Assembly (NCBI GenBank): GCA_052168235.1
Contig: JBQLZK010000101.1
Coordinates: 1 to 17,461 of the forward strand
Source of the DNA: Thainema sp.
GTDB lineage: Bacteria; Cyanobacteriota; Cyanobacteriia; Phormidesmidales; Phormidesmidaceae
Length of the DNA stretch: 17,461 nt
Direction: 5' to 3'
Every line of letters starts with the position of its first letter. Within the stretch, counting starts at the first letter, position 1. The translations under genes and the position numbers were made by a program. The notes under the pieces were generated by a model. It saw nothing but the letters and a program-made list of their open reading frames with translations, was not told the DNA's origin and searched no databases. This document shows positions 6,449 to 12,483 of the stretch, piece after piece.

Positions 6449-6529
6449 TTAGGGAAAGATAGAATAGCCTAGGATGAGGCGAATCATGGATTTCCATCGG
6501 CTTGATTGGCGAAGGGCGAAGCAATTGCT

Positions 6530-7468
6530 ATGAAGCTGTTCTACTATCAATTTCCAGCACAGCGCTATCCCAAAGGGTTGAGCAACTTTGGCGATGATCT
6601 TAATCCCTGGCTGTGGCAGCGGCTCATTCCGGAGTATTTGAACGACGACCCCCGCCAAGTGTTTGTCGGTATTGGTACGTTACTGAATCGGGGACTCTCC
6701 AAACGCTTTGCCAGCACTCCGCATCTGATTGTGTTTAGCTCTGGCATGGGCTATGGCGGCGGCTTGCCAACGGTGACACCTGCTTGGCGAGTGTACTGTG
6801 TGCGTGGCCCGCTCACGGCGCAGGCATTGGGCTTACCCGATCGCAAAATTGCTACAGACGGTGGAGCGCTGGTGCGACAGGTGTTTCAGCCCGCCCGACG
6901 GACGCGGTTCCGCTACAGCTTTATGCCCCACGTGGAACATGCAGATCTGGGCGGGCGGGTTTGGAACAAAATCTGCGATCGCATTGGCTTTCACTACATT
7001 GACCCCCGCTGGCCTGTAGAAACGGTGCTCACCGCAATTGGCGAAACCGAGGTTTTACTCACCGAAGCGATGCACGGTGCGATCGCAGCCGATGCCTTTG
7101 GTATTCCCTGGATTCCCATTCGCACCAGCAGCCGAGTTTTAACCTTCAAGTGGGAAGACTGGTGCGGTTCGCTGGGCCTTGCGTACGAACCGCAGACGAT
7201 TCTGCCGCTGTGGGATCTGTACCGCTTTGCGCCGGGAGTGCGCTCGTCGTTACGCTACTGCACCGATTGGTTCAAACAAGATCGACTCCGATCTGCGAGA
7301 TCGCTACTGGCCGATCCGGATAAATCTGTGTCTACCCAACTGGTGAGAATTGCCAAATCAGTACGACCGACATTAAGCGATCGCAAACAGCTTAACTACA
7401 GAATTGAACAGCTTGAGGAACACCTACATCAGTTTCGCACCGATGTTCAAGTTGGCCGCTTTGATTGA
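6530..7468 (+). CDS. Polysaccharide pyruvyl transferase (ExoV-like)
   Basis: MKLFYY, NFGDDLNPWLW, VGIGTLL, VRGPLTA, FMPH, TEAMHGAIAADAFGIPWIP and FKWEDW motifs. ATG at 6530 preferred over TTG at 6506. Confidence 0.85.
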   Translation: MKLFYYQFPAQRYPKGLSNFGDDLNPWLWQRLIPEYLNDDPRQVFVGIGTLLNRGLSKRFASTPHLIVFSSGMGYGGGLPTVTPAWRVYCVRGPLTAQALGLPDRKIATDGGALVRQVFQPARRTRFRYSFMPHVEHADLGGRVWNKICDRIGFHYIDPRWPVETVLTAIGETEVLLTEAMHGAIAADAFGIPWIPIRTSSRVLTFKWEDWCGSLGLAYEPQTILPLWDLYRFAPGVRSSLRYCTDWFKQDRLRSARSLLADPDKSVSTQLVRIAKSVRPTLSDRKQLNYRIEQLEEHLHQFRTDVQVGRFD

Positions 7469-7494
7469 ATAGACTCCCTTTTGCAATTCATTTG

Positions 7495-7561
7495 GCAGGG
7501 GCGGGGCTAGTCCTAAATTAGGGTTACTCAATCCATCCTGATCCGCGAAACCTGCCCCTGC
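7495..7561. repeat. REP-like inverted repeat (GCAGGGGCGGG...CCTGCCCCTGC)
   Basis: 11-nt arms at 7495-7505 and 7551-7561 (10 Watson-Crick pairs plus one G-U) around a 45-nt spacer; a variant of the GTAGGGGCGGG...CCCGCCCCTAC family. Confidence 0.6.
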
Positions 7562-7626
7562 AGCAGCGCTGCATTCTGGCGCGCGTGTTTCAAACTGCCA
7601 AATCACCCAATTTTTTTATCGAAATG

Positions 7627-7655
7627 TCCTGATGGAATGACCATAACTGAGTAAA
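7627..7655 (+). promoter_or_regulatory. DIF1-like promoter (TCCTGA-N18-GTAAA)
   Basis: TCCTGA at 7627-7632 is one mismatch from the DIF1 motif TCCGGA and starts exactly 35 nt upstream of the NsiR1-like 5' end at 7662. GTA is at 7651. Confidence 0.5.
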
Positions 7656-7661
7656 CGGTAG

Positions 7662-7713
7662 TGGTAGATGCACCCTGATTGATCCCTGGCCTTCGGGTCG
7701 GGGATTTTTTTTT
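7662..7713 (+). ncRNA. Putative NsiR1-like small RNA (~52 nt)
   Basis: 5' TGGTAGATGCACCCTGAT matches my recollection of the conserved NsiR1 5' segment. It is followed directly by a cUUCGg-capped hairpin and a T10 tract, and preceded by a DIF1-like motif at -35. Confidence 0.6.
7682..7713 (+). terminator. Rho-independent terminator
   Basis: ATCCC(T)GGCC-TTCG-GGTCGGGAT stem-loop (one bulge, one G-U pair) with ten Ts at 7704-7713. Confidence 0.8.
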
Positions 7714-7738
7714 GGAAGAGGTGAGGAGTAATTAGTCC

Positions 7739-8470
7739 TCAACATTTTACTTTCCTTGCCCAACCGATCCAAGCTCCTGCCAGCAGCAGAAATGCGATCG
7801 CACTGGACTCTGGCACGGCTACATGAGACGCAAAGGTGGCGCTGAACTCGGTGTAGTACAGGGCAGTTGTGCCTTCAAAGCCGGAGTCGGTACCAAAGTA
7901 TAACCAAGCACTGCCGCTGTCATCGGTTTTGAATCGAAACGGATTGGCTTGATTATCACGGCGAATTAGTGAGTAGTCCCAGCTATCATCCCCAATAGGT
8001 TTCGCCAAGTCACCCAGCAGCACGGCATCGCGGCCAACCTGACTCTGATTGCCCTTGTCGATATTGAGCCGCAGAAAGTCTTCGTCTGGATCAACCAAAT
8101 TCGGCAGCGGTTCAACTTGAGTCGCCCCGGCTTTGAGATAGACGCTGGTGGCGGGACTGCCGCCAATGCCGAAGCTGTCGGCTGGTGCATTGCTAGCCAG
8201 TTCCAGATCAAACGTAACGTGGTAGCGCGTGTTGGGTGCTAACCCCGTCACGAACTGGCGAAAGTACATAAACAGGTCATCGCTGCGGTTGTCGCCCGTG
8301 ATGAATAGAGCTTGATCGCCGCCCAGGTTGAACGGTCGCGATCGCACATCGGCACCTAACCGATAAAACGCTTCTTGACCGGGAGGATAGTCAGCAAAAT
8401 CGGCTTGCCAACTGAAAGCATCAGCGGTCGAAAAATCCCAGCTAAACGTTTGAAACGCTTGATTGTTCAT
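7739..8470 (-). CDS. PEP-CTERM sorting-domain protein
   Basis: C-terminal VPESS, hydrophobic helix AIAFLLLAGAWIGW and basic tail RKVK. The body is beta-rich, with FADYP, NRSDDLFMY and GTDSGFEGTTALYY. Confidence 0.75.
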   Translation of the reverse strand: MNNQAFQTFSWDFSTADAFSWQADFADYPPGQEAFYRLGADVRSRPFNLGGDQALFITGDNRSDDLFMYFRQFVTGLAPNTRYHVTFDLELASNAPADSFGIGGSPATSVYLKAGATQVEPLPNLVDPDEDFLRLNIDKGNQSQVGRDAVLLGDLAKPIGDDSWDYSLIRRDNQANPFRFKTDDSGSAWLYFGTDSGFEGTTALYYTEFSATFASHVAVPESSAIAFLLLAGAWIGWARKVKC

Positions 8471-8527
8471 ATTCTTCCATTATTTTTCCGTTGCGAAAAC
8501 GTGGATTCTCACCCTAGATGATTGGTT

Positions 8528-12410: not shown

Positions 12411-12483
12411 GGGCGCGTGGCTCAGTGGATAGAGCATCAGATTCCGGTTCTGAGGGTCGCAGGTTCGAATCCTGCCGCGCTCG
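12411..12483 (+). tRNA. trnR: tRNA-Arg(CCG)
   Basis: Cloverleaf: acceptor GGGCGCG/CGCGCTC; D arm GCTC/GAGC; anticodon arm TCAGA-TTCCGGT-TCTGA; T arm GCAGG-TTCGAAT-CCTGC; discriminator G; CCA not encoded. Confidence 0.97.

Follow-up and report, generated by a model that had tools for sequence, protein, structure and literature searches.

Which circuit does a small RNA (sRNA) gene of the NsiR1 family serve in a filamentous cyanobacterium that is judged not to form heterocysts? The question is raised by a stretch of 17,461 nucleotides (nt) from contig C101 of Thainema sp., called the window here. At positions 7627-7713 of the window, the initial annotation had pointed to a solitary NsiR1-like sRNA with a DIF1-like promoter, away from any hetF context. 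Judged by its sequence, this segment is a self-contained gene for an NsiR1-family sRNA. Its product quite probably belongs to the HetZ/HetR circuit and would act through an invariant 5' seed, as one of four sibling copies that make up a standing part of this circuit in filamentous cyanobacteria. The sections below set out the evidence for the gene, its promoter and its distribution, and then weigh what speaks against this reading.

The Small RNA Gene and Its Promoter

A covariance-model search of the window (Rfam cmscan, gathering thresholds) matched NsiR1 (RF02399) at 7662-7712 on the plus strand with 52.3 bits against a cut-off of 39 (E 5.5e-08), which bears out the family assignment of the initial annotation. 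The match takes in the full model, positions 1-60 of 60, and the 5' segment of the sRNA, UGGUAGAUGCACCCUGAU, agrees with the model consensus at 18/18 positions. At the curated thresholds the 17.5-kb window holds only one other Rfam match, a tRNA. The predicted fold has the two-hairpin shape of the family (-19.7 kcal/mol, z -2.35; 7 of 200 shuffles fold equally well), and an intrinsic terminator lies directly 3' of the short linker that follows the 5' segment. The same terminator was called by a consensus terminator scan of the window. Of the cUUCGg hairpin and T10 described earlier, the UUCG-loop hairpin stands, but the run consists of nine T at 7705-7713.

The promoter was read directly from the sequence. 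TCCTGA occupies 7627-7632 and is separated by 18 bases from GTAAA at 7651-7655; the sRNA opens at 7662 with TGGTAGATGCACCCTGAT, 35 nt past the first T of TCCTGA. The box is therefore placed at exactly -35 to -30, the register read by the sigma factor HetZ, and it is of the DIF1 type with one deviation. The unit lies between two convergent open reading frames (ORFs), as had also been stated. The features are as follows.

7627-7632, plus strand: -35 element TCCTGA of the DIF1 (sigma-HetZ) type, with one deviation, G-32 to T (sequence, homologous copies)
7650-7655, plus strand: -10-like element AGTAAA, that is A-12, G-11, T-10, A-9, A-8, A-7 (conservation among the box-bearing class A copies)
7662-7713, plus strand: NsiR1-family sRNA, about 51-52 nt (Rfam RF02399, fold)
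7662-7679, plus strand: conserved 5' segment (seed) TGGTAGATGCACCCTGAT, with a 3-base-pair mini-hairpin at 7663-7665/7672-7674 (Rfam consensus)
7681-7713, plus strand: intrinsic terminator, 11-base-pair stem 7681-7691/7696-7706, C(UUCG)G loop 7692-7695, T-run 7705-7713 (fold, terminator scan)
6506-7468, plus strand: upstream ORF of 320 amino acids, partial polysaccharide pyruvyl transferase match (Pfam PF04230, E 1.8e-07 over 53 residues)
7739-8470, minus strand: convergent downstream ORF of 243 amino acids, no family found (ORF list, family searches)
12411-12483, plus strand: tRNA gene (Rfam tRNA model, 66.6 bits)

HetZ is reported to be a sigma factor whose sigma-4 domain reads T-35 C-34 C-33 G-32 G-31 A-30, of which T-35, G-32 and A-30 are replaceable (PMC13342950). 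The promoter consensus given for it is TCCGGA-N16-17-TGNA-N7-9-T, and one nsiR1 promoter was used in building this consensus (PMC13342950 SI). The datasets of that study also list a HetZ peak in chromatin immunoprecipitation (ChIP) over nsiR1(1-12), which is reduced in the hetZ4-201 mutant (PMC13342950 datasets). The window reads TCCtGA-N17-aGTA-N8-T and has two mismatches, where PMC13342950 accepts at most two. The mismatch in the box falls at -32, a position reported as replaceable, and the -10 element fits TGNA with one mismatch.

Promoter Conservation among Homologous Copies

A scan for the seed followed by a T-run, with one genome per species, returned at least 116 loci and 200 copies with at least 60 nt of upstream sequence. 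By genus, 28 of the 116 loci are heterocystous, 59 non-heterocystous and 27 unnamed cyanobacterial; an ambiguous Plectonema and a chance match in Bacteroidaceae are left over. Morphology was presumed from the genus name in this sorting. Among the 200 copies listed, whose tandem members are not independent of one another, an exact TCCGGA in the 60 nt 5' of the RNA is confined to starts at -36 to -34. It is present in 36/67 heterocystous, 43/97 non-heterocystous and 16/32 unnamed cyanobacterial copies. When up to one mismatch is allowed, the box is found in 47/67, 68/97 and 21/32 copies of the same groups, and in 0-1 copies in each of two control windows. Counted per locus, at least one copy with such a box occurs at 38/59 non-heterocystous and 19/28 heterocystous loci. 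The named non-heterocystous genomes thus carry the DIF1 box at the same position as the heterocyst-formers. TCCTGA, the form in the window, is the second commonest variant in the non-heterocystous copies (20/97) and occurs once in the heterocystous group.

The -10 region is conserved as well. In the box-bearing copies (class A, n=139) G-11 is found in 131, A-9 in 134 and A-7 in 119. The window carries all three bases, and its GTAAA corresponds exactly to G-11 to A-7. A comparison of the host with a same-genus genome (87% identity overall) showed hardly any change in the box, the -10 region or the RNA, whereas the flanks and the spacer directly 3' of the box differ. The RNA of the same-genus genome differs by one loop base and has one T fewer, with no other change.

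Distribution of NsiR1, hetR and Nitrogenase

NsiR1 was found above the cut-off in all genomes of the host's order (121/121, from 15 genera, with 1-8 matches each). The window gene is therefore an ordinary feature of its lineage. In a sample of the class comprising 151 genomes of 90% completeness or more, NsiR1 is present in 83 and hetR in 82. Both occur in 81 genomes, NsiR1 only in two, hetR only in one and neither in 67, so that 3/151 are discordant; this co-occurrence is to be read as a pattern and not as a test statistic, as kin are not independent. The tallies per family are nearly all-or-none for NsiR1 and for hetR, and almost identical between the two.

Nitrogenase follows another course. 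nifD (E at most 1e-150) was detected in 47/151 genomes, namely in 30/83 NsiR1-positive and 17/68 NsiR1-negative ones. In the host's family, nifD is present in 2/10 genomes and NsiR1 in 10/10, and the same-genus genome has kept four NsiR1 copies without nifD. Since NsiR1 stays in step with hetR and only 30 of its 83 bearers have nifD, it goes with hetR rather than with nitrogenase or heterocysts. The suggestion that a HetR/DIF1-sRNA circuit exists that is not tied to heterocysts is consistent with this distribution.

Four Dispersed Copies and Their Neighbours

At least four NsiR1 matches in the host genome (7.54 Mb, 205 contigs, G+C 50%) exceed the cut-off; they are found on C35, C101 (the window), C1 and C30, and the model search behind this count scored 150 of 1175 first-look candidates. 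A genome-wide motif scan returned the same four copies, a sibling on C57 and a partial match on C87; GTAGATGCACCCTG is common to all six. In each of the four dispersed copies a box (CCCGGA, TCCTGA, TCCGGA, TCCGGA) ends 28-30 nt 5' of the RNA start. Their neighbours are unrelated and the orientations vary. The copy on C35 lies beside cytochrome oxidase genes and prs, the one on C1 beside an aminotransferase and an ArsR/P-type ATPase pair, the one on C30 beside a thioesterase and a DUF2358 protein, and the window copy beside the pyruvyltransferase-like ORF. The top-scoring host copy (55 bits) is that at C35:19028-19083(-), which is on the same strand as, and just 3' of, ctaD, ctaE and a short EAL-domain fragment.

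The gene adjoining a Nostoc NsiR1 array was identified as HetF (NF045509). Its host orthologue is located at C1:43755(+), with 54% identity over 353 residues. This hetF is about 67 kb from the nearest NsiR1 copy and on a different contig from the window, and none of the 34 CHAT-domain matches in the host genome adjoins an NsiR1 copy. The window locus holds a single copy and not a tandem array upstream of and antisense to hetF, as in Nostoc. It was thus correct to place the sRNA away from hetF. The word solitary applies to the locus, where the copy is single, but not to the genome, where it is one of four dispersed copies.

In heterocystous genera, a conserved single-copy NsiR1 variant (TGGTAGATGCACCCTGGTTAAGCCC...) with a TTCCGGAT box was observed at at least nine loci, apart from the hetF array. 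Because heterocyst-formers carry this single-copy variant too, solitary copies are not peculiar to non-heterocystous hosts.

The setting among surface-polysaccharide genes described in the initial annotation is weakly founded. The PS_pyruv_trans match of the upstream ORF is partial (E 1.8e-07, 53 residues), and the ORF preceding 6506-7468(+) belongs to the Npun_R2821/R2822 family. Homologues of the upstream ORF are present in 26/41 genomes, and the sRNA motif was found at 2/30 homologous loci, those of the host and of the same-genus genome. The linkage is therefore confined to the genus.

A second TCCTGA with consensus-like spacing was noticed at window 7536-7570(+), 91 nt 5' of the sRNA box and within a G+C-rich inverted repeat. 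Being one among 252 such matches genome-wide, it has probably arisen by chance.

The Host and Its hetR Circuit Genes

The initial annotation had proposed to check for hetR, hetF and nif genes, and to judge the novelty by whether the host forms heterocysts. Besides hetF, the host carries hetR (PF03574, 262.9 bits; NF009718, 539.5 bits against a cut-off of 489), nifH and nifD above their cut-offs, and one HetP-family gene. Directly 5' of hetR there is a PatX-like ORF of 77 amino acids with two RGSGR motifs (C12:16917-18565). This patX-hetR unit is preceded by TCCTGA-N17-CGTA-N8-T, which mirrors the TCCTGA-N17-AGTA-N8-T of the window, with the same box variant. A DIF1 promoter has been predicted for patX-hetR in another non-heterocystous filament as well (PMC11298460). 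The predicted transcript start of the host unit reads TAGTAGA, much like the start of NsiR1.

The host's order as sampled consists of a single family, which includes a named Nodosilinea genome (a metagenome-assembled genome). A named Elainellaceae genome and a Drouetiella genome fall in families other than the host's, and so do the tandem NsiR1 arrays typical of heterocyst-formers. Strains of Nodosilinea have been described as thin filaments that form no heterocysts (PMC7996595). Because the family is shared with Nodosilinea, we conclude by placement that the host is a non-heterocystous, nitrogen-fixing thin filament, in agreement with what had been supposed from the style of its sequence.

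Candidates for hetZ were sought by two routes, which identified neither HetZ nor its partner PatU. One route considered ORFs of 300-520 amino acids near HetR-type palindromes, which gave 21 pairs and then six under stricter conditions. Among these six were an aldolase, a radical-SAM protein, a protease and a nucleoside hydrolase, and none of the six matched a sigma factor in the PDB. An ORF of 400 amino acids near the only perfect palindrome is a pentapeptide-repeat protein and not hetZ. The other route started from a guess that PatU is a DUF1822 protein. The partner of 471 amino acids on C40 has no family and no PDB match, and only "hypothetical" names were found among 120 relatives listed. 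Its family is patchy (40/151 genomes) and does not follow hetR; because it is patchy and occurs in a hetR-negative family, this partner is not HetZ.

The host has four DUF1822 genes (C40:25783-28586; C9:140360-142845; C115:6677-9093; C25:59228-60154). Three of the four are preceded by a partner, in each case a member of one family (about 460-470 amino acids, without a Pfam domain), and three of the four adjoin CHAT-domain genes.

A Sibling Class with the Same Seed

Not all copies carry the DIF1 box. Among the 200 copies listed, 49 were found without it although they have the same seed as NsiR1, and these are referred to as class B. Their upstream region contains a GGG-N5-CCC palindrome at about -46 to -18 together with a TATAAT-like -10 box, in 44/49 class B against 6/139 box-bearing copies. 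The terminator is of the type G(A/G)GAG in 45/49 (GGGAGAG type), and the RNA usually starts with AAG or ATG and not TGG. Class B occurs in heterocystous and non-heterocystous genomes alike (14, 24 and 11 copies listed) and adjoins gatB, usually downstream, in many loci.

The site bound by HetR has been defined as the 17-base-pair GAGGGGTCTAACCCCTC, in which GGG-N5-CCC is required (PMC4192349). A sequence comparison showed that the class B palindromes fit this site. In the host, the class B copy at C57:29228-29322(+) (C57:29269) scores 28.1 bits on the NsiR1 model, below the cut-off, and no other Rfam family matched it in a search of all families with E up to 1. With at most one mismatch allowed over the 12 defined positions, only six sites are found in the genome, the palindrome of this copy among them. 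A comparison of hetR with the class B palindrome in five genomes turned out as predicted in four of the five. Two genomes that lack the palindrome at their copies had no match for hetR, and two others carry both the palindrome and hetR; in the fifth, hetR is present and no palindrome was seen at its copy.

Class B is uncatalogued as an sRNA class. A tentative proposal, to which we give somewhat less than an even chance, is that NsiR1 (class A, with a sigma-HetZ/DIF1 promoter) and class B (with a TATAAT-like -10 box that a HetR-type palindrome overlaps) form an ancient pair of sibling sRNAs that have one seed (GUAGAUGCACCCUGAU) and are wired to two arms of the HetR/HetZ circuit. If this is true, the seed and a conserved target would be part of what HetR originally did in filamentous cyanobacteria, before heterocysts existed.

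Proposed Action and Target Search

In the proposed mechanism, sigma-HetZ, in a loop with HetR, would start transcription at or next to T7662, and the RNA would be made when the HetR/HetZ loop switches on, which in Nostoc happens after nitrogen step-down. The RNA of 51-52 nt would act in trans, its largely unstructured 5' seed pairing with mRNA leaders and lowering their translation. For Nostoc NsiR1, lowered translation has been reported for hetF (as antisense) and for alr3234 (in trans) (PMC9045159). In a non-heterocystous host, the sRNA could not serve heterocyst formation.

A duplex scan paired the 22-nt seed with 5493 start regions (mean -13.3, standard deviation 2.8 kcal/mol); the scan is crude and ignores accessibility and true 5' ends. 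The top match is a 20-nt perfect complement of the seed, located 22-41 nt upstream of a Rieske-domain gene of 222 amino acids (-37.7 kcal/mol; C87:10560-10581; ORF C87:10601-11269(+)). On the other strand, this anti-seed reads as an NsiR1 5' end without a box and without a terminator. The Rieske-domain gene was rejected as a general trans-target, as this query did not find it in any of 60 further genomes of the family. The C87 anti-seed is one of two things, the remnant of an sRNA copy or a target specific to the strain. The next matches have no common theme and comprise a hybrid histidine kinase, an amidase fragment, a short-chain dehydrogenase, an M15 peptidase, an SLH protein and a Ser/Thr kinase.

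Expression was looked for in public runs. None of the 22 runs listed held half of the search words or more. Three metatranscriptome runs of one study contain a contig of an about 92% identical relative, which extends across 6500-8487 and both convergent genes. This relative has a 21-nt insertion just after the sRNA terminator (window 7720) and one T fewer in its T-run, with no insertion or deletion in 7622-7704.

Weighing the Alternatives

Several observations weigh against placing the window sRNA in the HetZ/HetR circuit. hetZ was not identified in the host by the two candidate routes, neither of which used a HetZ family model, and its presence rests on the literature for a genus of the same family, PCC 9330 included (PMC12669612). 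The window box deviates from TCCGGA, and the relaxed sigma-HetZ consensus is weakly specific, with 252 matches in the host genome. Furthermore, the expression row of nsiR1 is "up" in the leaky hetZ4-201 mutant although the ChIP peak is "down" (PMC13342950), so that the dependence of nsiR1 on HetZ is not simple even in Anabaena. In the crude duplex scan, which leaves accessibility and true 5' ends out of account, hetF ranks 2924/5493 and the HetP-family gene stands at the 44th percentile (-13.5 kcal/mol); both target classes validated in Nostoc are thus not predicted in the host. Lastly, the metatranscriptome contig of the relative shows no discrete RNA and could be DNA carry-over.

The hetZ not found by the routes tried, the non-canonical hexamer and the "up" entry in the Anabaena mutant would fit an sRNA that is real and made, but uncoupled from HetR/HetZ, with TCCTGA read by another sigma factor or with constitutive or NtcA-alone expression. 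The relation between patX and hetR in Leptolyngbya BL0902, reported to differ from that in Anabaena (PMC11298460), points the same way. However, the box stands in exact register in 68/97 non-heterocystous copies listed, its variant position is one reported as replaceable, and the host patX-hetR promoter has the same variant and spacing. NsiR1 and hetR also occur together in 81 genomes and are discordant in 3/151. Such uncoupling is regarded as unlikely. It is considerably more improbable that no independent RNA is made, so that the hairpin and T-run terminate the mRNA of the upstream pyruvyltransferase-like ORF and what resembles NsiR1 is a relic in decay. The terminator scan called nothing from the stop at 7468 to the box at 7627, so that the sRNA hairpin may well be where the upstream mRNA ends, and the stretch on C87, which has neither promoter nor terminator, indicates that relics do exist. 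The window element, however, lies above the curated cut-off over the full model, its promoter elements are conserved within the genus where adjoining bases drift, its layout recurs in three further copies whose contexts are unrelated, and 121/121 genomes of the order keep copies above the cut-off.

The lowest probability is given to a chiefly cis-acting element directed at the convergent gene 7739-8470(-), either through interference between the two transcriptions or with the RNA serving as antisense to read-through transcripts. The stop codon of this gene lies 26 nt from the end of the RNA, and because the hairpin has no T-run on the minus strand, transcripts of that strand could read into the element. 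Against this, the neighbours of the other three copies are unrelated and variously oriented, the linkage of the neighbourhood is not seen beyond the genus (2/30 loci), and the conserved part is the seed and not the flank. An sRNA of the HetZ/HetR circuit that would act through its seed thus appears to be the most probable account of the window gene.

Comparison with Known Systems

The initial annotation had assumed a higher novelty than can be maintained, since NsiR1 homologues in non-heterocystous filaments are on record (PMC4734099, PMC8400943). A table of 2016 marks homologues in 38 genomes, 27 under the heterocystous count and 11 not (PMC4734099 Table S3); the non-heterocystous marks include Trichodesmium IMS101, Arthrospira PCC 8005, Oscillatoria PCC 7112, 6506 and 6304, and Microcoleus FGP-2 (PMC4734099). 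RNA162, a 57-nt NsiR1-like RNA, was reported in 2021 from Limnospira indica PCC 8005, which has no heterocysts (PMC8400943). Like the window gene, these are NsiR1-like sRNAs in hetR-bearing filaments that form no heterocysts, and the occurrence of NsiR1 in such filaments is already known and not new in kind. As they stand in the two sources, in contrast, the records are a table row and a passing remark, without promoter analysis, copy census or a link to HetZ. A literature search found no systematic treatment of NsiR1 in non-heterocystous filaments, and a full-text search for the seed or NsiR1-like homologues was empty. What is added here is that non-heterocystous lineages conserve the sigma-HetZ promoter in exact register, together with the 121/121 census of the order and the match to hetR rather than nifD. 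The legend of a review figure of 2015 ties NsiR1 to heterocyst-forming cyanobacteria (PMC6596454), and this review-level view of an sRNA restricted to heterocyst-formers is corrected by the distribution.

The role of hetR, hetZ and patU in non-heterocystous filaments has been described as unknown (PMC11298460, PMC12669612). Since NsiR1 is present in every genome of the order, behind a promoter of the sigma-HetZ type and with or without nitrogenase, it is a compact and easily assayed read-out of the circuit. It also offers a route to the targets of the HetR/HetZ circuit. The single window locus adds little alone.

Compared with sigma-HetZ (DIF1) promoters, the window promoter has the same register of the -35 hexamer, the same 17-nt spacer, the same G-N-A core of the -10 element and the same T as predicted start base. 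It differs by one mismatch per element.

Nostoc NsiR1, as in Nostoc/Anabaena sp. PCC 7120, is encoded by an array of 12 tandem copies 5' of hetF, copy 1 being antisense to the leader of hetF, whereas the host has four dispersed single copies, none of which is near hetF. The Nostoc sRNA, whose induction on nitrogen step-down depends on HetR and NtcA, is expressed only in developing heterocysts, while the host lineage has none. The window gene further differs in its TCCTGA box, in a shorter terminator stem with a UUCG loop and in that pairing with hetF or a hetP-like gene is not predicted in the host. The two share the 5' 18 nt, the two-hairpin layout with a terminator, a similar size, a -35 box of the DIF1 type and the presence of multiple sibling copies.

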